Source: Escherichia coli
GTDB lineage: Bacteria; Pseudomonadota; Gammaproteobacteria; Enterobacterales; Enterobacteriaceae
DNA length: 64,000 nucleotides
NCBI RefSeq assembly: GCF_024700885.2
Contig: NZ_CP117014.1
Direction: 5' to 3' (one strand)
Below the pieces are notes generated by a model, which saw only the letters and a list, made by a program, of their open reading frames with translations, did not search any database and was not told where the DNA came from. Position numbers and translations under genes: made by a program. Positions 1,751 to 58,564 of the stretch are shown here, piece by piece; the stretch's first letter is position 1, and each line of letters opens with the position of its first letter.

Positions 1751-2064
1751 GCTGGCGGGGATGGGGAAGGGCAGAAATCATGATACTCCGCCAGTGCGCC
1801 GGAACTATGACGGTCGAGAGTATTGGGAAGCTGATCGGTCGTACCGGTGATGCCGTCAGGACTAAAGCGCGGGAGTTGGGGATCAGCATGATTCTGAAAG
1901 GAGACTTTCATCCGTCAGCCAAATTCCGGCAGAGCGATATAGAACTGGCGCGGCAGCTTCATCAGTGTGGTGTTCCCCGCCGTGAGATCGCGGAAAAACT
2001 CGAAATGCCCCTGGGCATGATTAATCAGTACGTTTATTTCGAAAGGAGAGTACATGAAGTCTGA
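1747..2064 (+). CDS. hypothetical small protein with HTH-like segments
   Basis: 105 aa; GTGA overlap with the upstream stop; segments ESIGKLIGRTGDAVRTKAREL and REIAEKLEMPLGMINQY look helix-turn-helix-like. Confidence 0.4.
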   Translation: MSWRGWGRAEIMILRQCAGTMTVESIGKLIGRTGDAVRTKARELGISMILKGDFHPSAKFRQSDIELARQLHQCGVPRREIAEKLEMPLGMINQYVYFERRVHEV

Positions 2065-2557: not shown

Positions 2558-2560
2558 ACA

Positions 2561-2809
2561 GTGAGTAATACCGCACGACTACAGCTTGGTTTTTCACCGC
2601 TATCAAAAACCATCGTGTTGGCAAAAATGCGTGACTTAGGGGATGGAACAAAACGTCGTGTTGGCAATGATCGCGGTCGTGATGTAACCAACGAGGCCGC
2701 TCAACTCCTCTGGCATCTGGTCATGGCAGAAGGCGGTGAAATTAATTGGGAGCTGGATGATGGTTCTCGCATGGTATTGAAGGCAGAAAAGCAGGAACCA
2801 CCACAGTGA
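2561..2809 (+). CDS. hypothetical protein
   Basis: 82-aa ORF, GTG start, tightly packed in the plus-strand operon. Confidence 0.35.
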   Translation: MSNTARLQLGFSPLSKTIVLAKMRDLGDGTKRRVGNDRGRDVTNEAAQLLWHLVMAEGGEINWELDDGSRMVLKAEKQEPPQ

Positions 2810-3081
2810 ATATCGACACCACGATAACGCTCGATACGGCCCTAAATACCGGTCTGGCACTTCTTGGTTGGCTTTACATCATGTCCCGTACCTGGCGATG
2901 GCTGGGTTCCATTTTCCTAAAAGAGTGGAAAAAACGGCGCAAACAGGAACTACGCCAGAAGGCATTAGAAGCGTTCTATGACGCATTTGAACTTAGCCGC
3001 ATTGAACCAGGCACAACAGCCAGAATAGCGACAAAAGGCGACCTGATGATAGTGATGTTCAGACAGGAGAAAACCAAATGA
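2806..3081 (+). CDS. hypothetical small membrane protein
   Basis: 91 aa; 4-nt overlap with the upstream gene; hydrophobic segment GLALLGWLYIMS. Confidence 0.35.
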   Translation: MNIDTTITLDTALNTGLALLGWLYIMSRTWRWLGSIFLKEWKKRRKQELRQKALEAFYDAFELSRIEPGTTARIATKGDLMIVMFRQEKTK

Positions 3082-30120: not shown

Positions 30121-33100
30121 TTAGGCCGCATCGGCGATTATTTTACGCAGTTCATCTACCGAGTAACGCGTAGATACCATCCATGCAGGACGGTCAAAGT
30201 TCACATCAGCAACCGGGTTTGCTTCAAAATTCCAGAAACGTCCGCCAATCTTCTTAATCGCGTCTTTGGCGTTCCGTATTGTCGAGGAACCTGGTTGGTC
30301 GGCAATGAGATAAACCGCGCCAACGTCCTCGCTGACGCTCCACCAGCGCCCGCGAACACGCGCCTTAGCGCGAATCGGCTTATCATTAACCACAATGATA
30401 TAGTCATCATTCGCCGCTTCATCAGCTCTGGCTTCAGCCACTGCCGCCTGCTCTTCTCTTTTGCTTTCAGCCTGCTCAAGCCTTTCCGCGATCTCTGATT
30501 CAGTGGCCCCGCCGTTTTTCAGCGATACATAGTCCTGCCACGTTGCCGATTTGAGCGTATCCGGCAACTCATTCACATAGTCGCCGTCTTTCAACTCACG
30601 GGCGCGGCGGGTAGCCATTTCTACCAGGCGATTAACAGAAACAGCATCAGCAAAATCGTCCTTACTAATGTGTTTTTCATCAAATGCATTGATGACAGCC
30701 CCCACCTTAATCCACTGTGCTGCCGGTGATTCCAGGGGGTTATCAGCCTGAACAATGGCGAGTTTCGCTCCATCTACCCCATTATTCGCCAGCTGTTCCA
30801 ATGCCGCCCATCCATCTGCATCACTGAGTGATTTATATTGCTCAAACAATGCATCGCGCCAGGCCACCAGCGCAGAACGTGTTTTTTCGATCTTCGCCTT
30901 AATTTTCGCGATCTTGACCTGATTAAACATCCGTTCAATATCATCGATATTGCTAAAGGCTTTCATCCTGCCCTGGAATAAACGGTATGCCAGCACGGTC
31001 CTCCAGAATGATTCCAGACCTTCTCCGGACGGTTTGCGGAACAAGCTAAGAATATCTTCAGAAGTGACTTTATTAAGCGAACGACCTGACAGACCACGCC
31101 CAGCCATCCAGTTTTCGAACTCATGGGCAACATCATCCATCGTTGCCTGTGCGCCCCATGCCTGCATTCCCTGGGTGTAATCATACCCATACAATGCCTG
31201 GAGGAATCCCTCGCCGTCCACGATATTCAGCGGGTTATCACTGGCTTGTATTTTTGCCACTTCACGCTTCAGCGCCTCGTCGTTGCCATCAGGATATATC
31301 CATCGCTCAGGTGCTATATCCGATGCTCGCCCGATTTTTTGGCCTATCACGCCATCATAGGCCGATGACAGCGCGATCTGACCATCATCTGTGCGATATG
31401 CCCAGTATTTAATAGCTGACCCACCGCCCCATGCATTACCAGGTTTACCAGCAATAACATTCATTACCCCATTGCGAATAGCATCATAGAACTGATCGCG
31501 AGTAAGTATTGTTGATAGCTGGTGGCACTGAACACCACGCGCAGCCGTTGCGCGCGATTCAGCTACCCCCTCTTCAAAAGTTACCGCTTCAATCACAGAG
31601 TCAAACGGCAATGTAACGATTGACCCCGGTGCTCGAGCGTAACGACTTGCTCTATCCAGCCAGGCGATACGGCAGAGGTATTGTGCTTTTTCACCGTCAA
31701 TTTTTTCCACCCGGACAATCGCTGTTGTTTCGCGATCATCAATGACTGCACGGTAATAACTACCTTTATGCAACAGGATATTCTTGTCAGTGCGCATATA
31801 TTCCTGTGGGTTCTGAATAACATCGATACTGATATCCAGCACACCAGACTTAATAGCGCGCTCCACCTCACCACGAGAGCGTTTCATTATGGTATCCGCG
31901 TCTTTTGCCCTGGTGATCGCAAACCGCAGCACCCGCGCACGTTTTCTGTAGCTACTCAACTGCTCAAGCGCGTATTTTTGCCCATTCCTGTTCGTACCCG
32001 CTTTTATCAGGTCGTCAAGATTGCGCTGGTAATACTCTATCTGTTCCATCGCGCTTTTCAGTTCTGTCTCCATCATGCCGATATCTTTTCCGGCGGCGTT
32101 TGCCGCTTTCAGGTAGATATCGAGAGCATTGTTGGCCTCGCGCTGTGCTTTCAGTTTCAGACGTTCTTCACGCTCTTGCGCCTGGCGAGCCATGATTGCG
32201 CGGCGTTCTTCCGGGTTTGCCGCCAGCATAATGGCGCGTTCATCAGCATCATCCGCATCACCATTGGCGATCTCTGACATGTCGGATGTCATCACCATCT
32301 TGATCCAGTCTTTCTTACGTTTCAGCGTATCCAGACGGAAGTCGTCGAATGTGCCTTTGCCACAATAGTAGTGAACATTGACCTTTTCTTGCGGTGAACC
32401 TACGCGCGCACCGCGCCCATTTCGTTGGTCGATACTGGCTGGTGTCCAGGGTAGTGTCAGGTGGTGGATATCGGTTGTCCCGATGTGCAGGTTAATACCT
32501 ACTTCAGCCTTCTTGTTACAGATTATGATGCGCGTGCGACCTTCGTTATAGTCGGCGGCAATACCTTCCATGCCCTCAAGGCCAGCATCATTTTTAGCGG
32601 AGAGATAATCCTCATATTGGGCAAGTTTGCTGTAGTAGGTTTCCCATGCCCCTTCTTTGTATTCACCGTTTTTGTTTGGAGTAGGTTCGGTCGGCTTATT
32701 CACCTTCTTCAGCTTGATGCCACCAGCCTGGCTAACTGTCGTCGCATTGATAATGCCAATCTCCTGCTCCGGCATTTGCAGTGCACTGGCGATAATACGG
32801 CGCAGCTTCTGGTGCTGGGCTTTTTCATCAATAAAGACGATCTGCTTACCGTTCTTCAGACCTTCACGAAGATTTTCGATCAGCGCGGCATACTTCGGCG
32901 GGATGGGGTGCGACACCTGCTGCATATCAATGCCGGCAGCCGCAATGGCCTTCAGTATTTCAGCTTCCAGTTCAATGCTGGCACGTATTTCAACATGCGT
33001 CGGATGTTCACTAAAAGCGGTCTTCACTACCTTGCTGGTACGCGTACTGACCAGCCCGCCAGCGCCGTCTTCCTCGGCCTCATCAACATCATCTGCCACT

Positions 33101-36100
33101 TTACCGCCAGCTACTTTTGGCAAGGCATCAGCAATAGCTTTTACCTGGTCTGCAAGCTCAACGGGGAACTGGAATGTAATCGCACTGGCATACAGATCCG
33201 GGTCTATAGCAACCTTATCCATGTCACGGATGATGGAGAAGATGAAATCATCCGGTTTGTCGTTAGTGATATGCCCGTTTTCATCGACTGTCAGCTCATC
33301 ATTGCGACTTAACTCCTGAGCACGCTTACGAAGCTCTTCATAAGCAGTCTCCTGCTCCCCTGTCATCGGGATCTGCAAGGTGTTCTCGATGATGTCGGGA
33401 ATTTTAACCGTCGCTCCGACATCTGCAGCAGTCTTCAGAGTGGTCCAACGATGGAAAATACCACGCAGGCCGTCAAGGTTCTGGAAGCCCACCAGCCCCT
33501 GCTTCTCTTCCACTTCCCCGGAAATTTTCTGGACCTGAACTGTGGCTGTTTTGCCAAACACACGAACGAAATCATCAGGCGTAATGATGCCCATGCGCAT
33601 CCACTCTTCCTGCGGAATGACAGTAGACAGCATGTTGAAGGCATCAATCGGACTGTTCACCAGCGGTGTTGCCGTCAGCATGACTACACCACGCCCGTTG
33701 TTGCGTTTCATCATGTACGCAGCTTTTACAGCCATGTCGCGGGCCATCTTGGATACTGCCGGGTTAGGCAAATATGCCAGTTGTCCCGCTTCACGCCCGG
33801 CATTAAAGGAGTTGCGGTAGTTATGCCCCTCGTCGGCAATCACGCTATCGAAGTTCATATCCTCAAAGTACGGGATATTCTGCTTCTTCGTTGTACCGGT
33901 ATTCGCGGCCTGATCCTTAATCTTGTTCTTCTTCTGCGCATCACGGTGTTTACCGGACGCCAGGTCAAGACGCCCCATTTCCACAGCATTAAAGACAGCT
34001 TGCTGTGAGTTCTCCTCGATGGTTTTTTCTCGTAGCGGGATAGACGCGAATTGTTCTTTTGTCATGATGACCGTTCGCCAATTTGACGACGGGATCATGT
34101 TCATGCGCTGAACGATAACGGCGCTGGCGGACTCTTTCACAACATTTCTGGTAAGAGGCTGCCCGTTACTGTCGAGGCGTGGTTCGCCATTTTCATCAAG
34201 CACCGGCGCGGTCAGAATATTTCCGCTGTCATCACGAACTTCATCCAAACCGATAAACATCATATTGGCGAAGGCATCAGCACTGTAGAAACTCTGTGCC
34301 TCGTGATACCAGTTCTGATAAACCGCCTTCGGAACAACAATACACGTGCGTTTAGTGCGACCTGTTTCGAAGTTATACGCCTCAAGCGCAAGCGCGGTCG
34401 TGGTTTTACCCAGCCCGGTACCAAATCCCATGATGCCGCGCCCATCTTCTGACAAGCTACGAACTTCTTCATTCTGATAAGTCAGAGGAATGCGCTTTCC
34501 ACTAATCCCTTCCAGGCCAAGCGGTGCGTTAGAGTGCGTGAACGGAATGAAGCCATTGAATGCGTCGTTATAGTCACGGGCTATCTGATCCGCCTGCGGG
34601 TGGGTGCGTAACCAGTCGTTAAAGCTAACTTCCAGTTGAGCAATTTTATCCAAGTACTCGTTAGCGTTCTGCCCACGCGGTTTAACACCGTTCAGGTAGT
34701 TTTCTAACTGGTTCAGGAAGCCGTCTTTATTGTTGGCCTTCTTGAACTCATTCCCGTTTTTGCCGTTTACGGTTCGTAGTTGATAGCCGGTAAATACCCC
34801 GTCCTTACCTTCGTAATCGTCCGGAGATACCAGAATGCCATCGACGACCTTCAGATCAGGTTCAGTGTACTTAAACTCGTCATAGCCCTGCTCTGCCAGG
34901 AACTCTTTTATCAAGCGGCGATCCAGCCAGCGGGCATTCAGATTAACGGTGACTTTATTTAGTGGCGTGAAAATGCGTTTCTCTTCGATTTTCGCCAACT
35001 GACGCTCAAAGTTCGCTTTCTGCTCACCTGTTGACGCATCACGCCAGCCCACCAGCAGTGCTGTTTTGGTTGCAACATCGCCGCTGGTGGCGCGGTCCAT
35101 CGGCAGCAGACAGCCATACCCATCAATAGCGATATCATCAAATTTCGCCAGGTATTCAAGGACCGCGTCGTCGTCCTCTGGCAGTTCACCAGCAAACGCC
35201 TCACGAAAGTCGCCCAGCGTTATAGGATTAAGGGCTACATCACTAAAAAGATGTGCTATCACTTGTTCAGGACGCGTAAAGTCAATACCGGCAGCACCAT
35301 CCGTTACATCAAGTCGCCCTGCCAGAAGGTCAGAAGTGGAACCATCCTGTTTCACATTGCCAGTGAACGTCATCCAGTTTTTAGCGCCAGCTTCAGCAAG
35401 CCCATTCAGCTTAATCGCGTGCGGTGGTCCATACTTCGCAACTTCTGCTGCCGCCAGGCGGGATGCATCTGCCAGTTTGTCATCAACGTTCACCCCCAGG
35501 TTACGCAAATCAAGTGCCTTGTTGATCAACTGACCTATCAGTGCACCGCGCATAACGCGCTCCCTGTCTTTTTCTCGCTGCTTGCCAGCAAAGCGAATCA
35601 TTGCTGCCACTTCATCACTGACAACCGATGGATAGTCGGACGCGATCGCCGATATCTGGTCCCATGACAAAGCCAGAATCCCGTTTGTTGACTGGAACGC
35701 GATCTGCAGATCGCCAAACGTCGAAACACCATATCGACTTACATCAAGCGCGGAGGATTTGGTTGTCGTGTCCTTAACCCATTTCAGACCATCAAACTCA
35801 TGCCAGATACCGCCTACAAGGCGTTTATCGCCCACTTTCGCGCCCTGCCATGCCTGAGTAGTTACGCCGAGCAAATCCCAATTGATGCGACTATCAAAGC
35901 GACGAGATAGCGCGGTTTTCATCGACTCATTGGATACACGACCGTCTTTTTTCACCACCAGGGTATTGCGGAAGCTGGTACGTTCCATGTCGCCGTAAAC
36001 AAATCGCTTCCCTTCGGTTGTAAACCATTTCCCTTTGAGGAAGGTATCCCAAAGGACGTTTGCCGATTTGAGCGTCGAATCATCCGTATCGGGGATCATC

Positions 36101-36957
36101 ACCAGGAAGGCTTCCGGGTGTTTACGCAATACCCATACGTCCACCACGGTATCTGTACCTGATTCACTGAACGTACCGGAAGGCATACGATGCGCGCCCA
36201 AAAATTCCGCTTTACGGCTGACTTTATCGCGCAATTTTTTGTATTTCGTACCATCAGTCATGCCATTCGGCACCACCAATACGATAAGCCCACCAGGTTT
36301 AACCTTGTCGATCGTGCGCAGCACAAAGTAATTGCCAACGTTCTTCTCGTTTGCATATGCCGGATCAAGCCCTGCAACGCCGGAACGGCCTTCGCCAAAC
36401 GGTACGTTACCAACAGCGTGGTCATACATTGCGTCTTTCGCCGCCAGCGCCTCAAACGCCCCGATATTCACATCGTCTTCCGGGTGCAAAAGCTGGTTTA
36501 TTCGACCGGAAATCGGAGACAGCTCGGCGCTGGTCATTATCATTCCCTGCCGTTTTGTCTCCTGGAAAATACCCGTGCCAGCTGATGGTTCCAGTACGTG
36601 ACCGCCATCAATACCGTAGTCAGCAAACAGCTCCCATATACCTTCAGCCATAAACTGTGGCGTGTAGTATTCGTATTGGCTGCCCTCACCATCTGTCAGG
36701 CCGCCTTCACCGGTATACCCAGCAAGAATCTGACGTTGTTCGTCAGTTAATTTCGCCCCATCGAAGCCGGGCGGAAGGGAATTAAGAAGATTTACTGCGG
36801 CATTGTTTGCTGCCCGGCGTGTTTTCTGAATACTGACGCCATCGGCTTTCCTGACGCCAAAGGTCGCAACAGCACGTAATTTATGCAACCGACTAACAAT
36901 TTCAATCAGTTCGCCTAAGCTGGAGGCTTCACTGATTGAATGAAGTAGTTTGTCCAA
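30121..36957 (-). CDS. darB: DarB-like methyltransferase-helicase (capsid-packaged anti-restriction protein)
   Basis: 2278 aa (P1 DarB is about 2255 aa); MTase motifs EPSAGTG and NVPF; helicase motifs GTGLGKT, DEGH, TATPL, QRNGRGARVG. Confidence 0.85.
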   Translation of the reverse strand: MDKLLHSISEASSLGELIEIVSRLHKLRAVATFGVRKADGVSIQKTRRAANNAAVNLLNSLPPGFDGAKLTDEQRQILAGYTGEGGLTDGEGSQYEYYTPQFMAEGIWELFADYGIDGGHVLEPSAGTGIFQETKRQGMIMTSAELSPISGRINQLLHPEDDVNIGAFEALAAKDAMYDHAVGNVPFGEGRSGVAGLDPAYANEKNVGNYFVLRTIDKVKPGGLIVLVVPNGMTDGTKYKKLRDKVSRKAEFLGAHRMPSGTFSESGTDTVVDVWVLRKHPEAFLVMIPDTDDSTLKSANVLWDTFLKGKWFTTEGKRFVYGDMERTSFRNTLVVKKDGRVSNESMKTALSRRFDSRINWDLLGVTTQAWQGAKVGDKRLVGGIWHEFDGLKWVKDTTTKSSALDVSRYGVSTFGDLQIAFQSTNGILALSWDQISAIASDYPSVVSDEVAAMIRFAGKQREKDRERVMRGALIGQLINKALDLRNLGVNVDDKLADASRLAAAEVAKYGPPHAIKLNGLAEAGAKNWMTFTGNVKQDGSTSDLLAGRLDVTDGAAGIDFTRPEQVIAHLFSDVALNPITLGDFREAFAGELPEDDDAVLEYLAKFDDIAIDGYGCLLPMDRATSGDVATKTALLVGWRDASTGEQKANFERQLAKIEEKRIFTPLNKVTVNLNARWLDRRLIKEFLAEQGYDEFKYTEPDLKVVDGILVSPDDYEGKDGVFTGYQLRTVNGKNGNEFKKANNKDGFLNQLENYLNGVKPRGQNANEYLDKIAQLEVSFNDWLRTHPQADQIARDYNDAFNGFIPFTHSNAPLGLEGISGKRIPLTYQNEEVRSLSEDGRGIMGFGTGLGKTTTALALEAYNFETGRTKRTCIVVPKAVYQNWYHEAQSFYSADAFANMMFIGLDEVRDDSGNILTAPVLDENGEPRLDSNGQPLTRNVVKESASAVIVQRMNMIPSSNWRTVIMTKEQFASIPLREKTIEENSQQAVFNAVEMGRLDLASGKHRDAQKKNKIKDQAANTGTTKKQNIPYFEDMNFDSVIADEGHNYRNSFNAGREAGQLAYLPNPAVSKMARDMAVKAAYMMKRNNGRGVVMLTATPLVNSPIDAFNMLSTVIPQEEWMRMGIITPDDFVRVFGKTATVQVQKISGEVEEKQGLVGFQNLDGLRGIFHRWTTLKTAADVGATVKIPDIIENTLQIPMTGEQETAYEELRKRAQELSRNDELTVDENGHITNDKPDDFIFSIIRDMDKVAIDPDLYASAITFQFPVELADQVKAIADALPKVAGGKVADDVDEAEEDGAGGLVSTRTSKVVKTAFSEHPTHVEIRASIELEAEILKAIAAAGIDMQQVSHPIPPKYAALIENLREGLKNGKQIVFIDEKAQHQKLRRIIASALQMPEQEIGIINATTVSQAGGIKLKKVNKPTEPTPNKNGEYKEGAWETYYSKLAQYEDYLSAKNDAGLEGMEGIAADYNEGRTRIIICNKKAEVGINLHIGTTDIHHLTLPWTPASIDQRNGRGARVGSPQEKVNVHYYCGKGTFDDFRLDTLKRKKDWIKMVMTSDMSEIANGDADDADERAIMLAANPEERRAIMARQAQEREERLKLKAQREANNALDIYLKAANAAGKDIGMMETELKSAMEQIEYYQRNLDDLIKAGTNRNGQKYALEQLSSYRKRARVLRFAITRAKDADTIMKRSRGEVERAIKSGVLDISIDVIQNPQEYMRTDKNILLHKGSYYRAVIDDRETTAIVRVEKIDGEKAQYLCRIAWLDRASRYARAPGSIVTLPFDSVIEAVTFEEGVAESRATAARGVQCHQLSTILTRDQFYDAIRNGVMNVIAGKPGNAWGGGSAIKYWAYRTDDGQIALSSAYDGVIGQKIGRASDIAPERWIYPDGNDEALKREVAKIQASDNPLNIVDGEGFLQALYGYDYTQGMQAWGAQATMDDVAHEFENWMAGRGLSGRSLNKVTSEDILSLFRKPSGEGLESFWRTVLAYRLFQGRMKAFSNIDDIERMFNQVKIAKIKAKIEKTRSALVAWRDALFEQYKSLSDADGWAALEQLANNGVDGAKLAIVQADNPLESPAAQWIKVGAVINAFDEKHISKDDFADAVSVNRLVEMATRRARELKDGDYVNELPDTLKSATWQDYVSLKNGGATESEIAERLEQAESKREEQAAVAEARADEAANDDYIIVVNDKPIRAKARVRGRWWSVSEDVGAVYLIADQPGSSTIRNAKDAIKKIGGRFWNFEANPVADVNFDRPAWMVSTRYSVDELRKIIADAA

Positions 36958-43026: not shown

Positions 43027-43209
43027 GAGTCACCGCGAAATGTTTTCAGTTTGCGGCAGCATAATCAGTATGTGATTTTTGATGATGGATCTTTTCAACT
43101 AGAAATATTGGCTGGCCCCTCTCGTAACAAAGTGAAGAATAAAACTTGAATATGCACATTGTGCGCATTAAGATTGAAAAAGTTGACCACTTTGCTGCGG
43201 AGAAATCCC

Positions 43210-43512
43210 ATGAAAAGCTCTTTAATTAATTCCAAATTACACCAACTTGCTATCAAAAATCGAGTTCCTGCATGGTCGGTTTACATGCATATCAGCCGCG
43301 CATGTCTGAGCAATGAAAACATTTACAATCTGCAAATTCTAAGCCGGGAAGGCAGGACTTTGTTTAGCGTTGCAGAGGATTCCTATAAGGCCTGGGATAT
43401 GCTGGATGACGCGTTAAGCCAATACGCGCAAACAGAAGAATGCCAAAAAGAATGGGCCAGGTACTGTGATGAAGGGATGCCATGCTGCGGTCTATTCGGC
43501 GCAGCTCTGTGA
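43210..43512 (+). CDS. hypothetical protein
   Basis: 100 aa from the first ATG (the ORF-track start at 43159 is TTG). Confidence 0.3.
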   Translation: MKSSLINSKLHQLAIKNRVPAWSVYMHISRACLSNENIYNLQILSREGRTLFSVAEDSYKAWDMLDDALSQYAQTEECQKEWARYCDEGMPCCGLFGAAL

Positions 43513-43524
43513 ATCGATTCAACG

Positions 43525-43788
43525 ATGATATACTTCGTTGCGAATCACAGCATTGGCAAAGGGCATATTGTGAAACAACTCCCACCAAACACCCCGGAAA
43601 CTATAATTGAAATCCGCCAGCGAATGGGGCTAACGCAAACGGAGTTAGCCCACAAAATGGGGTATCAACTCCGGGCTTGGCAATTCAAAGAAGATAGAAA
43701 TAAACCGAGACGCCTTATGGCTGGTGAATTTGAGTACCTGTTATTGCTTGCTGGAGAGCATCCTGAATTTATTCTTACACCACGCTAA
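43525..43788 (+). CDS. hxr: XRE-family HTH protein
   Basis: IIEIRQRMGLTQTELAHKMGY is a classic Xre HTH; P1 has hxr next to the dar operon; start uncertain. Confidence 0.5.
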   Translation: MIYFVANHSIGKGHIVKQLPPNTPETIIEIRQRMGLTQTELAHKMGYQLRAWQFKEDRNKPRRLMAGEFEYLLLLAGEHPEFILTPR

Positions 43789-43793
43789 AAAAA

Positions 43794-43809
43794 CCCGCCT
43801 GACGGCGGG
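43794..43809. terminator. bidirectional stem-loop
   Basis: CCCGCC-tgac-GGCGGG with A-run before and a T-run on the minus strand. Confidence 0.5.
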
Positions 43810-43822
43810 ATTATCAATCATA

Positions 43823-44116
43823 TCAATTCACATCAATGTCTTGATATGATTCGCCAGTATCGTCTTCGTCGTCAGGATCTCCTTCCACCTCTGGCCACTC
43901 AACCTCCCAGCCAACAGTTTCCAGGCTCCGCAGAACAAACACCCCATCGGCATGAATGGTATTCACGATCCCCATTGCGGAATTTGAGTTGATAAAGCGT
44001 AAATCTTGCGCAATATTTTCTTCCGAAATATCGCCTTCAAATATACGCAATGTGCCGTCATCAGAGCATTCAACAATCCCTCTAATCCCAGCGGGACTCA
44101 CAATGCTATACTTCAT
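43823..44116 (-). CDS. hypothetical protein with acidic tail
   Basis: 97 aa; overlaps the end of the ddrB-position gene by 11 nt; C-terminus EGDPDDEDDTGESYQDIDVN. Confidence 0.4.
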   Translation of the reverse strand: MKYSIVSPAGIRGIVECSDDGTLRIFEGDISEENIAQDLRFINSNSAMGIVNTIHADGVFVLRSLETVGWEVEWPEVEGDPDDEDDTGESYQDIDVN

Positions 44117-47100
44117 TTTGCAACTCCTTCATACATCCCAAGAAAAATTCCAGCACGCCGTCATTGTTTAATACAGAGTTAGTCGCCTGCTCCGGATCGG
44201 CATACATCTGCAAGGCCATAGAAAAAATCTCAGTCGCCCTGCAATTGCTTAATGCAGGTGGCTTTGATATAAATCTGCCGCTGACAGAACTTACCGTATT
44301 TTCCATATAAATTTTAGACATATATCCATGACTTAGGTCGGTTCGCACCAAATACTCAGCACTGCCACGGCTACCAATATTATGATAAGAAACTTTACCG
44401 TTAGTTTTTGATTTAATGAAGGCTTTGGCCCTCTCCAATAGATGGGGATTTGAATGTTCTATATGGTGACCTATTTCATGCCATAATACACGCTCGTGAT
44501 CACTATTAGCATCAATTGTTATATTCCCATTTCGACTTGCAAAAGCACGAACATTGTTCTTGTGGTTAATATTTTTTAATGTAGATAAAGTCCCTCCTGA
44601 AATAATATAGGCTTTTTCAATCGTCTCGCGAATACTGTATGCTTTACGGGAGAAAGTTTCATTATCGTGACCACTTAACTGCTCTGCTTCATCAGAAATA
44701 GCAATCCCACGACTCCATTCCTTAGACTGGTCATGTGACACATTTGACGATTCAAGAATCATGTCAAATGCGGCTCTGACTTTTTTATGTACTACATTTT
44801 CAAGCGCATTAGGATAGGCTTTTTGTCCACGTGTTAATGAAGCTATTTCATATAGTTCTGCTTGCAAGTCTTCCGGTATGTCCAGATTAAAAACAAGCAT
44901 TTTTTTCAGATCATATCCAATCCCATGATCATTCTGGTGCAAAACCTCAGCAAGGTAGTCAGTGAGTTTTTCCTTATTTGACCTAACTTTATTGATTTGT
45001 TCTATAGTAAAGTCAACACGCTCCTTGATTCCGTAATATGAGGAATGCTCTGCTAATTCCACTATCTCCTTAAGCCTGACAAGTGTCTCAATATACGCAT
45101 CAGCGATCTCCTCTGCCGTTAGTTCAGAGCTAACTCCGACACTGGCTGTTATTTTCCTACCAGCCGCCATAATATCGTCGATATTATGCAAGCTCTTTTT
45201 GAATAACTTCAAAGTATTTTGGATTATGCACACCATCTCTTCTGCGCTTCCAGCTTTATTCATTTCCTTTCTAAATCTTAAAGCTGTTTTCTCTGCAATA
45301 GACGCTGGAGATTTTAAATAGTTACCTAACCAAACAAGACAACCATTGCGCAATTCATCAATACTAAAGTCATCAGGAATATGTTTTGCTGCATTATGTA
45401 AAACACGTATAAATTGTTCAGCGGGCACGCCTTCTTCTGATATGTTGCAAAACGTTTCAATATCACAATCAATATTTCTTTCATCTGCGAGCGAAGGAGC
45501 TTCATCTCCTTTTTCAATCGCGTCACGCAGTGCGTTAGCATAAAAATTGCTGCGTTGATAAGACAATAACATCGTTGTTAACACAGCGTCGCTGTATCCA
45601 TAACGTTTAGCCCACTCCTTAATCTCATTAACGGTGACATTGCGAATATAAAAACCAAGTTCCAAAAATACATTGCGCTTTATTTTTTTTGCGGACTCCT
45701 TAATTTTTTCTGACACCTTCACGATTCGGATCAAGTCCTCCACGCTGGTCGCATCAGCAATTAGCTTTGAAATGTATGGTTCGACATCTCCTGAAACCGA
45801 TTCAAACATGGCGAAATTAAGCCCTTTACCTTCGCCATACTCAGCCTCAATTTCATCAGAAACGGCAGATAAAATGCTACGCAGATCGACATCTCCGCCG
45901 CCGAACATATCGCCTAACGCTTGTTGCTGGTGAATAAGTTCATCGTTAATTTTTTGCGCCAGTTTCTTGAAAGCTGCCCCCATTCGCTTAGCGCTTCGGT
46001 TGTTGGCAACAATAAACAGAGCAAGCGCTTCTGCTTCCGGAGTGCTATCTCCAAACAATCCACGCTGTGCGATCACCTCTTCTACTGCCTGACCGTTATC
46101 TTTTGCTTCACGAACAAGGTTAATTGCTTCCTGTAGCGCGGCAATAGCCTGTTTATCCAGACCATTCAATTGCTCTATACCGTCTACCAGTCCGGTTACC
46201 GTGTCATGGTGAACATCACCTGAAAGCGACTGCATTTGCGCAAAATCGCTGGCTGCCGTATTTAATGCGGTAAGAATGTTACGCATTTCCGGATCTGGCT
46301 CTTCCGCCACCAGCCGAACAAGCCTTTCATCCTTGTACGCTTTGGCAAAAATTGCATTCTGGATGCGGTCGATAAGTTGTTTCGTTGGACGCCCATCGGC
46401 AGTAAGCAAACCTGCCGTCGCCGTATCACCTATTTCGCGCAAAAACGCACGAATAAACGCATCATTGGACCGCGCCAGTAGATTTCCATCATCTGAAGGA
46501 TTAAATAGCGCCATGACGCTCTCAGTGAGAAATTGCGCATCCGCATACGCTTTTTCACTTGCAGCCATCTCTTGCAGATCGCTGATGTTTGAATCGCGGG
46601 CAAATTGTGCGCGGTCTACATCTGTGAGTCTTTCTCGCACCAATACGGGCATAGACATTTGTGAAATGTCGTCAGGATTCAGACCAAACTCTTTTGCATG
46701 ATCGATCAGGTACTGGCGATATTCATCCGCCTGCCCTTGCTCATAGGCACGCCAGATACCCATGCTCCTTCCGTTGCCGGATTCAACAACGTTGTCCGGA
46801 CCAACTATCGGCGCTCCGTGGCTGCTCATGCCGGAATCCGTTAATTGTGCCGGGCGTAAATTGGAGGCAATACGGTTAACCTGGAGTTTGCTTGATAGCC
46901 GTGTACGGTCACGTGGCTGGAGTTCTTCCGGGAAGGCCGGATTAATCGTACCGTCAAGGTTGTTCGAAATGATCAGACTGCTGGCATCAACGACCTTAAA
47001 AGCCGTCTTTACCTCTGCCCCTTTACTGGTGACTACGTAACTACTGCGCCCCTGGCGTGTTTCTCGCCTCTCTAATGAAGAAACCAGCGCAATAACACTG

Positions 47101-47147
47101 TTAATGTCTGCTGCTTCGGATAGCGCGGAAGTAACTGACTTGTTCAA
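44106..47147 (-). CDS. ddrB: DdrB-position large protein with C-terminal HEXXH module
   Basis: 1013 aa after the ddrA-position gene (P1 order darA-ddrA-ddrB); WHEIGHHIEH encoded at about 44466-44480; the C-terminal half is visibly AT-richer. Confidence 0.5.
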   Translation of the reverse strand: MNKSVTSALSEAADINSVIALVSSLERRETRQGRSSYVVTSKGAEVKTAFKVVDASSLIISNNLDGTINPAFPEELQPRDRTRLSSKLQVNRIASNLRPAQLTDSGMSSHGAPIVGPDNVVESGNGRSMGIWRAYEQGQADEYRQYLIDHAKEFGLNPDDISQMSMPVLVRERLTDVDRAQFARDSNISDLQEMAASEKAYADAQFLTESVMALFNPSDDGNLLARSNDAFIRAFLREIGDTATAGLLTADGRPTKQLIDRIQNAIFAKAYKDERLVRLVAEEPDPEMRNILTALNTAASDFAQMQSLSGDVHHDTVTGLVDGIEQLNGLDKQAIAALQEAINLVREAKDNGQAVEEVIAQRGLFGDSTPEAEALALFIVANNRSAKRMGAAFKKLAQKINDELIHQQQALGDMFGGGDVDLRSILSAVSDEIEAEYGEGKGLNFAMFESVSGDVEPYISKLIADATSVEDLIRIVKVSEKIKESAKKIKRNVFLELGFYIRNVTVNEIKEWAKRYGYSDAVLTTMLLSYQRSNFYANALRDAIEKGDEAPSLADERNIDCDIETFCNISEEGVPAEQFIRVLHNAAKHIPDDFSIDELRNGCLVWLGNYLKSPASIAEKTALRFRKEMNKAGSAEEMVCIIQNTLKLFKKSLHNIDDIMAAGRKITASVGVSSELTAEEIADAYIETLVRLKEIVELAEHSSYYGIKERVDFTIEQINKVRSNKEKLTDYLAEVLHQNDHGIGYDLKKMLVFNLDIPEDLQAELYEIASLTRGQKAYPNALENVVHKKVRAAFDMILESSNVSHDQSKEWSRGIAISDEAEQLSGHDNETFSRKAYSIRETIEKAYIISGGTLSTLKNINHKNNVRAFASRNGNITIDANSDHERVLWHEIGHHIEHSNPHLLERAKAFIKSKTNGKVSYHNIGSRGSAEYLVRTDLSHGYMSKIYMENTVSSVSGRFISKPPALSNCRATEIFSMALQMYADPEQATNSVLNNDGVLEFFLGCMKELQNEV

Positions 47148-47240
47148 AATACACTCCCCTTACATAGAAAGCAGGAAGTGTAAAAAGTGTGTGATTTATG
47201 GACTTACAGGAAAGTGAAAGGGGCATTTCAGCCCCTTTGA

Positions 47241-47609
47241 TTACCCTGCATAACCGTTGGCTTTCACCCAGCTTATGGTCTGCTCTTTTGCCTGTTCCAA
47301 CGTAAGGAACTCGCCAACATAGTTTGAGATCCCACGCAGCGCATCAATAAATTCCATTTGTGTGGACTTTGTGAACACACCGCCCAGGAAGTCAGTCACT
47401 ATCTTAGGAACTTCATCTACAACAGGATCAGTCTGTTGTTGCGGTTCCGCTGCCGGTTGCGCGGCAGTCCCCAAGCCCAATTTCAGCATCACATCAACAA
47501 TCTGCTTACCAATGGTGACGCGTTGCAATACTGGCGCCGTTTTCTGCGCCTGCATTAGATCTGATAGCTCTTTACCTAATTTCAGGCGGTCTAAAACAGA
47601 GATGGTCAT
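47241..47609 (-). CDS. ddrA: DdrA-position protein
   Basis: 122 aa; ATGA-type overlap with the darA stop; positional. Confidence 0.4.
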   Translation of the reverse strand: MTISVLDRLKLGKELSDLMQAQKTAPVLQRVTIGKQIVDVMLKLGLGTAAQPAAEPQQQTDPVVDEVPKIVTDFLGGVFTKSTQMEFIDALRGISNYVGEFLTLEQAKEQTISWVKANGYAG

Positions 47610-49534
47610 TAAGCACCTCCCTGCTGAATTTCAGCCAGAATGTTGATCAGGTAGTCAACTGCTGCACCAACAGTGGCTTCGTTCTCGTCGTATCGACCTG
47701 CGCTGATTAGAGCGTTTGCTGCTTCCTGCACATGATCAAGTTCAGCACTGATGACCGTCAGATCGCGGGATGTAAACTGCTCCGGCACGGATTTCAGGTA
47801 CTCCAGTGCTTTATCTGCCTCCTGATCAGCTTCACTTGCTGATTCACCAGCTTCTTCTGGCTCCGGCTCCTGTTCTGGTGCTGGTTGTGGTTGTGATTCC
47901 GGCTCAACCACATGCTCTGCTTTTACTTCGCTTGAATGATTTTGAAGGGCGTTATACACGTCCATAATGAAAAGGTTCTCCCCATCACCAAGTGGATACG
48001 CCACGTTTGGAAACGCTTTGCGGAAAAGAATTTTCACTTGCGCCTTGAATGTTTTCAGGTCACTGCCAAACAGGTCTACATAGCCATCAATATGTTTCGA
48101 CATGCTGGACACAACCAATTGGCCTGCAAAATCTTTCAGCTCATCTTCATCAGGAAGATAGAGCAACTCGTACTGGCTGACTTCTTCATCTGTCAGTTTA
48201 CGGTCATACGTAATGATACCGTGACGAGCATATTCGTAATACTGATCAGCCTGGTCAGGACGATCAAGCACGGCTTTATTTCCATCCGGCACAGCACCAA
48301 CACCAGCCGGGCGAGATTGAAGTGCATAGTGGTATTTACCTACATCCTGGCTCTCTGGTTGTGATACTGGGTTCGTCTCGGGGTCTGTCTGTGGTGGTTC
48401 GGGGTCTTCCTGCTGGCCTGGTAACACATCAACTTTATATTTATCTGCGTTATGCTCTCGGTAGGCTTTAAGTAATTTGGTTGCAGCATCTGCCAAACTG
48501 CCTCCTTTGACAGCACTGGCATCAATACTGAATTTACCTTCAGGTGCTACTATCGTAACGAAATTGTCACTGCCGGACGTGATATAATTAACTTCAGCGC
48601 CATTATCCAGCACTGTTTTTCCGTCAATGGCAAGATTATGTTTTACATGTCGCAGCTGGTCACTAAACGCTCGTTCCTTCGTTTTTTCACCTTTAGCAGA
48701 CAACAATTTATCGCGTTTTTCTTGTAATTCCTCGTTGATGGCTTTCTGGGCATCAAGTTTTTTTTGCATCTCCGTAAGAGCAGCACGCTTTTCAGTCAGC
48801 CCACGTTGCGCAACGTCCACCTGATCAATCATTATTGACCGTTCTTCTGCCAGTTTATCTGCTTCATTGAGATAACTCTCAATATCTGCCTTCATTTTGT
48901 CCTGGCGCTCTTTTGCTTTCTTAAATTTTTCGCTGTTACGCTCAATCAAATTAGATAGCGCCTGGCATACCTGGCTTAAAGAAACATCTCTCCCACCAAT
49001 CGGGGCGACAACGTGAGTTACGTTACGCTTATTAAGTAAAAACTGAAATGCAACAAGCTCGTCGTTACTCTTTATTTTTGCCCCGTCAGCTGTTGGAGAG
49101 TGGAAAATTATGCTTGTACTCTGCCCGTCAGTAAGTGGTATCTGCGCGGTCAAAACAGGGATATTAGCTACCCGACGTACACGACCGATAATCGCACCAC
49201 CAATACAATTACGTCCATTTTCATCGGTCCCGGCTTCATCAGTCCCTGCCATAATATTCGTACCATTCAGGCCACGATTCAGCGCACGGACGAAAGCTCG
49301 CATTGTTTGGGCTAACCGAATTCTGGTTGTAGTTATGGACTCAAACATAGCTTCGTCAGACACAACCAGAATTTCATTGCCCATATAGGCAAGCTCAATA
49401 TCTTCTAAGGTCGCCGCCTCAAAAATCAGGTCATCTTCGCTTAATTCTTCTGAAGACCAGCGACTTGGCACATAGCCGGGGATCGTATCAGCAAAAGTAG
49501 ACTGAATATTAATTCGTAAAGGATTGTTAATCAT
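47609..49534 (-). CDS. darA: DarA-like capsid-packaged anti-restriction protein
   Basis: 641 aa from the ATG 6 nt after GGAGG (P1 DarA is about 639 aa); overlaps the hdf-position stop (ATGATTAA); acidic Pro/Glu-rich linker. Confidence 0.55.
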   Translation of the reverse strand: MINNPLRINIQSTFADTIPGYVPSRWSSEELSEDDLIFEAATLEDIELAYMGNEILVVSDEAMFESITTTRIRLAQTMRAFVRALNRGLNGTNIMAGTDEAGTDENGRNCIGGAIIGRVRRVANIPVLTAQIPLTDGQSTSIIFHSPTADGAKIKSNDELVAFQFLLNKRNVTHVVAPIGGRDVSLSQVCQALSNLIERNSEKFKKAKERQDKMKADIESYLNEADKLAEERSIMIDQVDVAQRGLTEKRAALTEMQKKLDAQKAINEELQEKRDKLLSAKGEKTKERAFSDQLRHVKHNLAIDGKTVLDNGAEVNYITSGSDNFVTIVAPEGKFSIDASAVKGGSLADAATKLLKAYREHNADKYKVDVLPGQQEDPEPPQTDPETNPVSQPESQDVGKYHYALQSRPAGVGAVPDGNKAVLDRPDQADQYYEYARHGIITYDRKLTDEEVSQYELLYLPDEDELKDFAGQLVVSSMSKHIDGYVDLFGSDLKTFKAQVKILFRKAFPNVAYPLGDGENLFIMDVYNALQNHSSEVKAEHVVEPESQPQPAPEQEPEPEEAGESASEADQEADKALEYLKSVPEQFTSRDLTVISAELDHVQEAANALISAGRYDENEATVGAAVDYLINILAEIQQGGA

Positions 49535-50147
49535 GCTCATCCTCCAGGCGCGCGATTTCTTCTTTAAGAGCACGTGTCTTAGCTACTTCCTGAGACAAGG
49601 CAGCTTTAACGTTACCCGTATCTTGCATTACTTTGTCTGACTTGCTCTGGAGTTTAGACAGTTTGTCGTTAGCATTAGCGATATCTTCACGGAGTGCATC
49701 ACGTGATTCTTTCGCTTCAGCTAATTTCTGAGCGTTAGATTTAACTCCCTGCCGCTTCTTATTTCCGTCATCAATATTTTTTGCTGCACGAGCAAGTTTT
49801 CGAGCTAATGACTTCTGGAAAGAAGTTGCTCCGCGATTAAATAAAGCCGCAAGAGATTGCCCCAAAGCCGACATTGTTTTTACTGGCTTGAACGGTACTG
49901 TTTTACCATTCAGTTTGATCCCAGATATATCACCGGTATCGTTAACCTGAACTTCCATTGTCTGTTCATCAATACCAATAAGGGTAAATGTGCGCGTCAT
50001 GATCCCATCTTTCTTCCTGCCATTACTTGCAGGGATCACCCTCGCTATCTTGTAACCACCTTTGCTGATTTCTTTGACGAGTTTTGCCAGCCCCTTTTCG
50101 TTTAACTCATCATAATTAAGAAGAACATAATTATTCTTATTTGACAT
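49527..50147 (-). CDS. hdf: Hdf-position protein
   Basis: 206 aa from the ATG after AAGGAG; immediately upstream of darA, as hdf is in P1. Confidence 0.4.
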   Translation of the reverse strand: MSNKNNYVLLNYDELNEKGLAKLVKEISKGGYKIARVIPASNGRKKDGIMTRTFTLIGIDEQTMEVQVNDTGDISGIKLNGKTVPFKPVKTMSALGQSLAALFNRGATSFQKSLARKLARAAKNIDDGNKKRQGVKSNAQKLAEAKESRDALREDIANANDKLSKLQSKSDKVMQDTGNVKAALSQEVAKTRALKEEIARLEDEHD

Positions 50148-50583
50148 CCCAGTCTCCTTCACGCTTTTCGATCGTAAACTGGCGCTCTATGCAGTCATTG
50201 ATAGGGAAAATGCGATAAAGCGGATTCAGTCGGCAGTTACCGTTAGTCAATGTGACTTTCAGATCCCACTTCGTTGGCTCAAGATATTTCGTATCGATGA
50301 GCAAATACTCTTCTCTCTCACCGCGTTTTGAGGCGTCAACTGGTCGCGTTTTCCCTGAAATAACCACAGATGGATTTTTCAGGTCTTGCAACCAATATTC
50401 GATTTGAGCATTGCTGACCCAGCTTCGCTTAACACGTAGCGAAACAGGAAATGCTATAGCGGATTCTTTCACTACAGCGTCACCAATACTCAAAATCTCA
50501 ACACTCTTGCGACGAAAAATGAAACGGTCAATGATGGCAACAAATGCCATGATAAAAATGAAATAATTTCCAAAGTTACCCAT
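50137..50583 (-). CDS. lydB: LydB-like antiholin
   Basis: 148 aa (P1 LydB is 147 aa); N-terminal TM; ATGA overlap with lydA. Confidence 0.5.
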   Translation of the reverse strand: MGNFGNYFIFIMAFVAIIDRFIFRRKSVEILSIGDAVVKESAIAFPVSLRVKRSWVSNAQIEYWLQDLKNPSVVISGKTRPVDASKRGEREEYLLIDTKYLEPTKWDLKVTLTNGNCRLNPLYRIFPINDCIERQFTIEKREGDWDVK

Positions 50584-50909
50584 TATTTCTCTCCACCTTT
50601 TCCCCCATTCGCTATTACGCTTAAGAGATTCAAGACGTAACTAGCTCTGGACTTCAAGCCCTGTAAAATTTCACTACCGTTGTTACTGGCAATCAGAACA
50701 ACGCAGAAAATGATACCTTCAGGCCATTCTTGGCTAACCGCCACCCCATACCCCGCAAGCCCGGCTGTTACCGCAGTAAACAATTCACTCGCAAGATTGA
50801 GCAGGGACGCAGAAATGCGCCCGTCTCTAACTCCGAGAAGGAATACGCCGGTTCCACTTAGTAGGGATGTTATGACTACTACAGCCAGATTTTCATAATC
50901 TGCAAACAT
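50583..50909 (-). CDS. lydA: LydA-like holin
   Basis: 108 aa (P1 LydA is 109 aa); three hydrophobic segments; next to cin as in P1. Confidence 0.55.
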   Translation of the reverse strand: MFADYENLAVVVITSLLSGTGVFLLGVRDGRISASLLNLASELFTAVTAGLAGYGVAVSQEWPEGIIFCVVLIASNNGSEILQGLKSRASYVLNLLSVIANGGKGGEK

Positions 50910-56277: not shown

Positions 56278-57123
56278 TTAAACAGATTGAAGGTGGTAAT
56301 CCAAAGGCCACGCATCGAGTGGGGTTACATCAAGATGTAATTGCTTTTCTGCCGTTCGGTTCGGTATGGCATTAAGAGAAATATTGTCTGCCTGGCAGGA
56401 GGTATCACTACGGGATAGCATATCAGCCATACTCTCAGTAACATAAACACCTTCAATTACCGAAACATCCGTAGACAGGTAATTTAATATTTCTGCCACT
56501 TCAGGGAATACAGCACTAAGCCGAAACGAGACGCCATCAAAAACAATATGCAATGGCAACAAAGGGGCTATTACTGTTTCGAAGTCAGATAACAATTTCT
56601 GCACAGCGGCTTCTTTATCCTGCTCTCCATATGAGCGATATAGCTTGTTCTGATCAACAACGACCAGCCCCCTTGATGTCAGGAAGAGCTCACCGAATTG
56701 AGCCTGTGCCGTAGGTATTTCTATTTCGGTCGCAAAATATGAACCATAGGGGTGTTTTTCTATATTTACAGGTGCATACAGCGGTTCCCAACTAACAGGA
56801 ATACAACCGAATTCACGCCAGAATGTCTGCTCAATAGGCAAGATAGTACCTTTAAAGTGCACTTCATCTAAACGCTGCGCCAGAAGCATTGGCCTACGGG
56901 CATTATCTTTTTCAGTGATAACGAAAAAACGCCCGTATTCAGCAATGCGGGCATCCATATCCTCACTGTCCATAGTGAAGAAGGATTTTCTGTTACTTAT
57001 TCTTGTTAATATTGGTTCTACTGCCTCATTCCAGACATCCTGTAAAGCGTCTATAAATGCACTCCAGAGATGTGAATCCTGTTTTACTTTAGTTAATCGT
57101 TCCTTAAGCCAATTATCTTTCAT
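56278..57123 (-). CDS. 16: baseplate/tail-fibre attachment protein (gp16 position)
   Basis: 281 aa; positional match to P1 gene 16. Confidence 0.45.
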   Translation of the reverse strand: MKDNWLKERLTKVKQDSHLWSAFIDALQDVWNEAVEPILTRISNRKSFFTMDSEDMDARIAEYGRFFVITEKDNARRPMLLAQRLDEVHFKGTILPIEQTFWREFGCIPVSWEPLYAPVNIEKHPYGSYFATEIEIPTAQAQFGELFLTSRGLVVVDQNKLYRSYGEQDKEAAVQKLLSDFETVIAPLLPLHIVFDGVSFRLSAVFPEVAEILNYLSTDVSVIEGVYVTESMADMLSRSDTSCQADNISLNAIPNRTAEKQLHLDVTPLDAWPLDYHLQSV

Positions 57124-57133
57124 GCTAACCTCA

Positions 57134-58564
57134 TTACGGGTAAGAAATGCTGAACGTTGAAGATTTTACGTTAAGATAAATGAAGTCATTAAAGTAAACA
57201 GCATCTTTCATATTTTGTATTGTTATGTCGTAAGACAGAAACATATCCAGAGACTCTATTACTCGCCAAATATCTTTAACTTTTACCTGTGCATAACATT
57301 GCTGGGAATCATCATCACTCTGTAGTAATAAACTGAATGATGACGAATCACGGCCAAAATTATCTTCCAACGCTGCTTTAATAGCATTTTGAGCATCGTC
57401 TATCAGAACATTTTTACGTGCAATACCTATAAATTTTATAGTAAATGGCTGTTCATTTGTATCTACATACTCGAACCGCTTGTTCAACTCATTTGGAACA
57501 TTCTCTAGAGCTTTCAGTATTTCTGATTTTAGCTGAGCCTGGCTTACACCCGGCTTATGTCCGCAAAAGAAAATTTTGTTGATGTTTCGAACGTCAAACC
57601 CAGTTATTTTCTCTTGTAACGCTTCGCCCCAAACGTTCAACCATGAAGTTCCATGAACAACATTCTGAATGAATTGGCGATAATCACCGCCCCATACCAC
57701 TTGTTCATCGTATGCAACATAATACTGAGCACGATTTCGAGTTTCTTCTGTAGTTTCCATACCACTACCACCGGTAATGATCGAATCAGTTTTAAACTCT
57801 AGTGACTCCGCATATTGAGCGATATTTCCAGCCGGTTCTAACTTTTGTCCTTCAGCCAAAGTATAGTCGCCAAGGCTAGCCATAACATCGATTCGAACCT
57901 GACAGCCTGCTGGAGGCATCATACCCATAGAACCATCACCAAACTTGACTCCAAGTTGTTCTGTAGGTTTATATGCCAATGAATAGTGCTTACTCTTGTC
58001 TCTGGACATTCTAAATAATGGGTTATATGTCCATTTTTCTTCTACTCCATCTGTAATAACATAAACATCCAGGCTAGAGACTTCTTTTGTTAACTCTCTG
58101 GAAAGCAACAATGTCAGAAATAAAGTTTCCTTCTCAATATCAAATGTAATGCTAACAGCTTCATGCTGTTTAGTTTCTACGCCAGAAACAGTTCCTCCAG
58201 CAGGAATTACAACACTGTTAATAATTGCCAAAGGTGTTTGGTCATTGGCAAGCAATTCAGCCCCGGCTGGTAACGTAATATCCCGATCAGTTTTATTGGT
58301 TATAGACGTTGTTCCGTATGAAGCACTAACAAATCGCCCTACGTAGCTACGGTCTTCAGCAACCGCTAAAATACTTGAGCGACGCGTTGCCGTTGAAATA
58401 AGTCCCTCAGTGAGGCCGCGGCTTGCAAATGTACGGGCAATATAAATAAGCTGCGCTCCGAATATAGCGTGCATCTGCACAAACTGACTATTTACAAATC
58501 GTGACCACCATGTGTTTTCGTTTAACTTGGCGTTAAATTTGTCCAGTAATTCTGTAATCGTCAC
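57134..58564 (-). CDS. bplA: baseplate protein (BplA position, gpJ-like)
   Basis: 476 aa; overlaps the upstream gene by 4 nt; positional. Confidence 0.5.
   Translation of the reverse strand: MTITELLDKFNAKLNENTWWSRFVNSQFVQMHAIFGAQLIYIARTFASRGLTEGLISTATRRSSILAVAEDRSYVGRFVSASYGTTSITNKTDRDITLPAGAELLANDQTPLAIINSVVIPAGGTVSGVETKQHEAVSITFDIEKETLFLTLLLSRELTKEVSSLDVYVITDGVEEKWTYNPLFRMSRDKSKHYSLAYKPTEQLGVKFGDGSMGMMPPAGCQVRIDVMASLGDYTLAEGQKLEPAGNIAQYAESLEFKTDSIITGGSGMETTEETRNRAQYYVAYDEQVVWGGDYRQFIQNVVHGTSWLNVWGEALQEKITGFDVRNINKIFFCGHKPGVSQAQLKSEILKALENVPNELNKRFEYVDTNEQPFTIKFIGIARKNVLIDDAQNAIKAALEDNFGRDSSSFSLLLQSDDDSQQCYAQVKVKDIWRVIESLDMFLSYDITIQNMKDAVYFNDFIYLNVKSSTFSISYP

Follow-up and report, generated by a model that had tools for sequence, protein, structure and literature searches.

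In the 64,000-nucleotide stretch of Escherichia coli DNA analyzed here (contig NZ_CP117014.1 of assembly GCF_024700885.2; hereafter the window), the position occupied in phage P1 by ddrB holds an open reading frame (ORF) for a 1013-residue protein whose AT-rich 3' half encodes a HEXXH motif. This locus raises the question of whether a new peptidase module was fused to a Dar protein or whether the domain is a regular part of DdrB. We conclude with very high confidence that the ORF is orthologous to ddrB, that it belongs to a D6-like phage-plasmid of the P1 family, and that the C-terminal domain of its product has a zincin fold. The phrog_2299 profile matched the protein over its full length (residues 12-1012 aligned to positions 10-994 of 995), and a three-way alignment with P1 DdrB (YP_006491.1, 995 residues) and gp116 of Cronobacter phage JK004 (998 residues) ran end to end over 1033 columns with 45-47% identity. 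The motifs LWHExGHHxExSNP and TE(V/I)FSMALQ were invariant among the three proteins. Placement of the protein in the DdrB position, as proposed in an initial annotation of this DNA, was borne out by the profile matches of the genes that precede it (Table 1).

The protein is organized in three parts. The N-terminal half, which includes the DdrB-ParB domain, was 61-78% identical in amino acid sequence to full-length DdrB homologs (42-78% over all those compared), far above the values for the middle region. For the latter (residues 450-785), no Pfam or PHROG family of its own was found; an AlphaFold2 model of residues 450-1013 (10 sequences; mean predicted local distance difference test score, pLDDT, of 74), which also reproduced the peptidase domain, predicted helices throughout, with pLDDT values of 45-60 for residues 450-560 and mostly 70-90 for residues 560-700. 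A Pfam match to SRP19 at residues 661-738 scored 24.4 bits against a cut-off of 25 and was treated as a chance match in a helical stretch. The possibility of a new domain fused to DdrB was rejected because P1 DdrB and JK004 gp116 share the ParB domain, the helical middle, and the HEXXH motif over their full length. A conserved N-terminal half, a fast-diverging helical middle, and a C-terminal zincin-like domain are the ordinary architecture of DdrB, that of P1 included.

The HEIGH sequence (within WHEIGHHIEH, 44454-44483) was found exactly where the initial annotation had approximately located it. To quantify its conservation, 1.84 billion representatives were searched exhaustively with HMMER for matches to residues 780-1013, which gave 164 clusters at E < 1e-3, and the domains aligned from 150 listed proteins of these clusters were counted. 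H890, E891, and H894 were kept in 157 of 159, 155 of 159, and 157 of 160 domains, respectively, and E973 in 159 of 160. Five further positions were nearly as constant: R867 (150/155), E897 (159/161), E931 (151/158), Y942 (156/158), and Y947 (151/159), so that the clade follows the pattern R...HExxHxxE...E...Y..K.Y...TE. A lone HEXXH occurs by chance about 0.03 times per protein of the size of DdrB, which is a rough estimate of our own and not a computed value; a chance origin was discounted because 155-157 of 159-160 homologous domains retain the motif (97-99% of about 160). H890, H894, and E973 are likely the zinc ligands and E891 the catalytic base, the role of E973 being putative and assigned by analogy to the published description of zincins (PMC5512222).

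AlphaFold2 modeling of the C-terminal domain from a 17-sequence alignment gave a pLDDT of 93.2 and a predicted template modeling score of 0.90. The HEXXH motif was placed inside a helix (model residues 106-120), and the model displayed the expected zincin core, in which a mixed beta-sheet is bordered by the two helices of the active site and a helix at the N terminus. The structural matches included the lethal-factor-like domain of Certhrax (6.7), MtfA (6.5), and anthrax lethal factor (6.5 and 6.3), followed by M1 aminopeptidases, Wss1, SprT, astacin, collagenases, and thermolysin; the best structural matches overall are active endopeptidases. Foldseek comparison of the domain model with viral models returned five uncharacterized phage proteins with E values between 2e-9 and 5e-6, as well as weaker, non-significant matches named as head-morphogenesis, polyvalent-protein, and "lethal factor" proteins, and its comparison with the PDB returned nothing significant. 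By sequence, no peptidase was matched among all PDB chains with phmmer or a profile hmmsearch, no peptidase model matched the C-terminal domain in Pfam at E ≤ 1, and a word-indexed protein search yielded zero matches with residues 470-1013, three with residues 840-1013, and seven with the 17-sequence profile. Thus, a metallopeptidase fold is predicted and the motif is conserved among homologs, the two points on which the metallopeptidase assignment in the initial annotation depended. We conclude that the C-terminal domain is a zincin fold in which the predicted catalytic residues are all present and strongly conserved, resembling the MEROPS M34 family in fold and not by sequence.

The comparison with known zincins leads to the same placement. 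The M34 enzymes (anthrax lethal factor, PPEP-2, and PPEP-3) share the HExxH motif and a distal Glu with the window domain, whereas sequence identity is only 9-13%, neither their chains nor the Pfam ATLF family is matched by sequence or profile, and conservation of R867, E897, E931, and K945 is specific to the phage clade; the predicted resemblance is one of fold, not of family membership. The zincins of polyvalent proteins (PMC5512222) have a HEXXH helix and a downstream Glu helix with a variable insert between them, an acidic residue at the third position past HEXXH (E897 in the window DdrB), and a location C-terminal to DdrB-ParB in a late-operon virion protein, with P1 DdrB among the examples of that paper. 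The window domain does not differ from these in kind and belongs, as a divergent member, to their clade, for which Pfam has no model. This clade also occurs in a second common architecture, situated in the middle of many distant homologs of about 620-660 residues that lack the ParB domain. Such homologs (P0021, P0030, P0041, P0055, P0075, and P0100, of about 600-690 residues) belong to phrog_20397, of unknown function, and some match a "minor head protein" PHROG.

The initial annotation regarded a protease or peptidase-like effector packaged with the Dar proteins and injected into the host as not known to have been described; the peptidase domain of DdrB and its kind had in fact been described. 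The GenBank record of P1 DdrB reads "unknown protein function; possible metallopeptidase", flagged in 2004, the annotation of phage JL22 reads "ddrB: putative metallopeptidase", and Iyer et al. (2017), who gave the DdrB-ParB domain its name, recognized a zincin-like peptidase at the C terminus of P1 DdrB (PMC5512222). According to the same authors, zincin peptidases are the commonest domain of polyvalent proteins delivered by virions or conjugation, such as the N4 virion RNA polymerase, ArdC, and TraC1 (PMC5512222). Nor is the module an addition, as had been implied, since the alignment with P1 DdrB shows the same HEXXH motif (LWHELGHH; LWHELGHHLEYSNP). The P1 gene likewise follows darA and ddrA, is itself followed by an overlapping hxr, and encodes the same three-part layout with the DdrB-ParB domain; it differs in that nucleotide identity to it is about 66% and confined to the 5' half and in that the 3' part of the window gene is much more AT-rich. 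DdrB, an internal head protein of the Dar anti-restriction system, is one of six Dar proteins (PMC12810830; PMC12707154), was detected in the P1 virion proteome with 59.5% peptide coverage and listed there as "aids DarB addition to capsid" (PMC9024508), and is non-essential (PMC10695390). Head packaging that depends on DarA/Hdf and a role in anti-restriction have been described for P1 only (PMC12810830; PMC9024508), and by orthology the window DdrB would have the same role. The window gene is, in sum, a rare, divergent, AT-rich recombined allele; both the protein and its predicted peptidase domain were known before.

Relative to D6-type genomes, the 3' part of the allele belongs to an exchanged cassette. 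By blastn against D6 and pLD93-1, the window was collinear at 96-98% identity in two segments, 50986 to about 45800 and 43078 to 40000, with no similarity between them; the first segment ran down to 45802/45799. The 95-98% identity to D6-like elements ended at ddrB nucleotides 1346-1349 (codon 450), directly after a conserved MFE motif that closes the N-terminal half, and the downstream edge lay about 50 nucleotides upstream of the start of the portal gene (ATG at 43026). The exchanged cassette holds the 3' 1.69 kb of ddrB, an hxr homolog, an 87-residue helix-turn-helix (HTH) ORF, and a 117-residue ORF. In D6 itself (orf25) and most D6-like elements, the N-terminal 449 residues are encoded at the same high identity between the same flanking genes, whereas the slot measures 1.11 kb; DdrB stops there at 454 residues, without the middle region, peptidase domain, or hxr, and the remaining space is taken by a DUF4145 gene and a small ORF (L004:6491-7425 and L005:6491-7425 in the compared loci). 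This different content indicates that the site between the N-terminal half of ddrB and the portal gene acts as an exchange hotspot for accessory cargo.

The allele is rare. In megablast searches, ddrB nucleotides 1-1346 matched phage D6 and many of 117 P1/D6-like plasmids at 95-98%, and the full-length gene was found in only 3 of 72,556 plasmids; among 5,426 complete E. coli genomes the full-length allele was present in only five, always plasmid-borne. Homologs of the peptidase domain were encoded by 513 plasmids of the plasmid collection, most of them P1-type with about 41% identity, and relatives of the cassette at the DNA level (66-71% identity) were found in plasmids of Enterobacter, Citrobacter, Klebsiella, and Leclercia. 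The amino acid identities of the N-terminal half, middle region, and peptidase domain were 65%, 19%, and 41%, respectively, between the window protein and P1 DdrB; 78%, 32%, and 54% for the nearest representative (P0004); and 90.5%, 28.5%, and 46.2% between P1 and JK004, with the middle region being 9-32% identical to other DdrB alleles. As judged from these alignments, the discordance is a property of the family and not of the window allele only.

The AT-richness of the 3' half noted in the initial annotation was confirmed by GC content (0.39 for the 3' 1.7 kb versus 0.49 for the 5' part). When the gene was split at nucleotide 1346, the GC content was 0.494 in the 5' portion and 0.390 in the 3' portion (gene nucleotides 1347-3042), compared to 0.521 and 0.474 for P1 ddrB and 0.565 and 0.531 for JK004 ddrB, both split at nucleotide 1350. 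These smaller declines, of 3-5 points, indicate that the gene itself accounts for some of the drop, and they are what would favor an account in which the AT-richness reflects only amino acid composition or relaxed codon use in one vertically inherited gene, without recombination. The drop in the window gene is 10 points, however, 2-3 times larger than in P1 and JK004 and mostly not intrinsic. It extends to third codon positions (0.459 to 0.349), makes 44200-45700 the lowest-GC 1.5-kb stretch of the window (mean 0.473, standard deviation 0.029), and coincides with the point at which about 115 related plasmids abruptly cease to match at 95-98% nucleotide identity, a match that returns 2.7 kb further on. 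The best GC change point (~45713) fell about 90 nucleotides from the cassette breakpoint. Given the fall at third codon positions and the abrupt identity breakpoint, the purely compositional account was rejected as extremely improbable. Most likely, the cassette came from a P1-like element of lower GC content through homologous recombination, with a crossover that would have occurred just after the conserved N-terminal half. The "domain swap" of the initial annotation therefore stands insofar as a real recombination breakpoint lies at the AT-rich half, but one allele replaced another of the same module and no new module was introduced. The second lowest-GC stretch of the window, at ~56700-58400 (GC about 0.39), contains genes that match tail tube (phrog_2015) and baseplate (phrog_1369) families.

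The hxr homolog travels with the cassette. There is an 11-nucleotide overlap between its start and the ddrB stop, and hxr overlaps the last ddrB codons in every full-length allele examined, i.e. those of P1, JK004, Leclercia, and probably Serratia (L002:6248-6553, L003:7532-7819, L006:4674-4961, and L007:4596-4907 in the compared loci), whereas it is absent from the D6-type genomes with truncated DdrB. Hxr may function together with the peptidase domain. No Pfam HTH match was obtained for the hxr product, and the label "Xre-like repressor" looks weak for that reason. A strong terminator-like hairpin lies within the exchanged cassette, 14 nucleotides past the hxr stop, and probably closes the lydA-lydB-hdf-darA-ddrA-ddrB-hxr late operon, a gene order that is as expected for the P1 DdrB family. 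Beyond it, on the opposite strand, the 117-residue ORF is followed by the 87-residue XRE-like ORF (43159-43788) in an order reminiscent of toxin-antitoxin or regulatory pairs.

Table 1. Features of the ddrB locus, in window coordinates.
Feature	Position	Strand	Basis and remarks
2.72-kb cassette exchanged relative to D6-type genomes	43079..45798	.	blastn against D6 and pLD93-1, junction alignments
117-aa ORF	43159-43512	+	ORF listing; no family
87-aa HTH ORF	43525-43788	+	Weak HTH_3 and phrog_7950 (transcriptional-repressor) matches
Intrinsic terminator-like hairpin, CCCGCC-GTCA-GGCGGG (six G-C pairs), then T7	43794..43809	-	Consensus scan only
hxr homolog, 97 aa, acidic C-terminal tail, in cassette	43823..44116	-	45% identity to P1 Hxr, 47% to JK004 gp115; phrog_2292
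ddrB ortholog, 1013 aa (112 kDa), TTG start	44106..47147	-	ORF, translation, full-length homology; RefSeq WP_032323249.1 at same coordinates
Zincin-like metallopeptidase domain, aa 786-1013, AT-rich	44109..44792	-	
E973 (in TEIFSMA), putative third zinc ligand on following helix	44229..44231	-	Conservation; start of helix, model residues 195-201
HEIGH, aa 890-894 (H890, E891, H894), predicted to supply two zinc ligands and the catalytic base	44466..44480	-	Translation, conservation, model helix
Hypervariable all-alpha middle region, aa 450-785, AT-rich	44793..45800	-	Low identity across the DdrB alleles compared
Conserved N-terminal half, aa 1-449	45801..47147	-	95-98% nucleotide identity to D6 and D6-like phage-plasmids; contains ddrB-ParB domain
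ddrB-like ParB/Srx superfamily domain, aa 42-173	46629..47024	-	Pfam PF18763, E = 1e-41, profile positions 2-120/121
Upstream Dar operon genes as block	47241..50909	-	ORFs, Pfam, PHROGs, D6 annotation
ddrA	47241-47609	-	ORF; DdrA-like phrog_1855; D6 annotation at 96% nucleotide identity
darA	47609-49573	-	ORF; Pfam DarA_N and DarA_C (PF18788 and PF18789); D6 annotation, 96% nucleotide identity
hdf	49527-50162	-	ORF; Hdf-like phrog_1620; D6 annotation, 96% nucleotide identity
lydB	50137-50583	-	ORF; D6 annotation, 96% nucleotide identity
lydA	50583-50909	-	ORF; D6 annotation, 96% nucleotide identity

The TTG start of ddrB is the same in RefSeq WP_032323249.1 and in the D6 record, and a Shine-Dalgarno sequence (AAGGGGAG) is located 6 nucleotides upstream of it. 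Between the ddrA stop and this TTG, a perfect 8-bp hairpin (AAAGGGGC / GCCCCTTT, 6-nucleotide loop) occupies 47217-47238 on the minus strand; it has no clear U-tract, and the gap at the equivalent point of P1 is only 12 nucleotides. Within the N-terminal half of ddrB, an antisense ORF of 141 residues (46276-46701, plus strand) lies roughly at the place of iddB in P1; it matched no PHROG and probably does not represent a gene. Elsewhere in the window, a 2278-residue ORF (30121-36957, minus strand) matched DarB-like anti-restriction, methyltransferase, and helicase PHROGs, indicating that the element also has the DarB arm of the Dar system.

We consider it quite probable that the C-terminal domain is a catalytically active peptidase, which would act in cis or on nearby cargo. 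P1 DdrB reportedly undergoes cleavage to about 76 kDa before it is packaged, and autoproteolysis by the zincin domain was predicted (PMC5512222). In P1 DdrB, 76.3 kDa corresponds to 700 residues, which places the cut upstream of the peptidase domain. Following Iyer et al., the window peptidase would cleave DdrB itself inside the variable middle region and thereby free a ParB-containing fragment for a role in the head and after DNA ejection. Taken as a whole, the explanation that we favor by a narrow preference is a D6-like DdrB with an exchanged AT-rich cassette and an active, self-processing peptidase; that self-processing is the main role of the domain is a more tentative proposal, to which we give somewhat less than an even chance. 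Several points weigh against this combined explanation. A search of the literature turned up no DdrB for which zinc binding or proteolysis had been examined experimentally, the coverage of DdrB in P1 virions does not tell which fragment is packaged (PMC9024508), and the nearest relatives of the peptidase domain are only 50-54% identical. In addition, D6-type DdrB ends at 454 residues with neither peptidase nor hxr, indicating that the N-terminal half is not strictly dependent on self-processing; because these phages live without it, the peptidase module is accessory whether it serves self-processing or acts on the host.

Action on the host, the idea of the initial annotation, is the substance of the main rival account, which we hold to be well below the favored explanation in probability: the peptidase would be an injected effector, packaged with the Dar proteins, ejected with the DNA, and cleaving restriction or defense proteins in the new host, with the middle region and peptidase domain setting allele-specific targets and Hxr being the cognate partner or inhibitor. 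The domain family is found in virion-associated phage polyvalent proteins, and Iyer et al. also considered action of such peptidases after injection (PMC5512222), although the fold matches to proteins of this kind are weak. DdrB is present in P1 virions (PMC9024508), divergence among alleles is far faster in the C-terminal two-thirds than in the N-terminal half, as expected in an arms race, and the alleles are swapped as cassettes. However, the reported cleavage of P1 DdrB precedes packaging, a C-terminal fragment in the head is not established (PMC5512222), no host target is known, and D6-type phages manage without the module; ddrB is non-essential (PMC10695390), and its reported role is DarB addition to the capsid (PMC9024508), with no distinct protease phenotype. 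In its most specific form, the cassette would be a mobile, fast-evolving effector unit of helical region, metallopeptidase, and translationally coupled acidic Hxr, in which the peptidase is delivered with the DNA to cleave host defense proteins, the variable region sets specificity, and Hxr is a cognate inhibitor or chaperone and not an Xre-type repressor; we view this version as rather improbable. Slightly less probable still is a zincin-like domain that is not a peptidase in practice, serving instead as a structural or packaging module or as a hydrolase on a non-protein substrate, as YbeY does on RNA. The peptidase-domain region of the N4 virion RNA polymerase is needed for encapsidation while the protein stays unprocessed (PMC5512222), which fits such a function, but the HExxH...E set together with E897, Y942, and Y947 is near-absolutely conserved over about 160 domains, and the best structural matches are to active endopeptidases.

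The HEXXH domain of DdrB is already present in the P1 annotation and in the literature on polyvalent proteins, and its recognition here carries little discovery value. The useful results are that the catalytic set is nearly invariant over about 160 domains, drawn from the 150 listed representatives, and that a conserved N-terminal half of DdrB is joined to a rapidly exchanging C-terminal cassette that travels with hxr. If the cassette were a mobile effector unit, allele turnover in P1-like phage-plasmids would reflect an arms race with host defenses. The full-length P1-type proteins, the rare AT-rich allele, and the D6-type truncations lacking both the peptidase and hxr make up a natural comparison set for the prediction that DdrB is a self-processing or injected protease.

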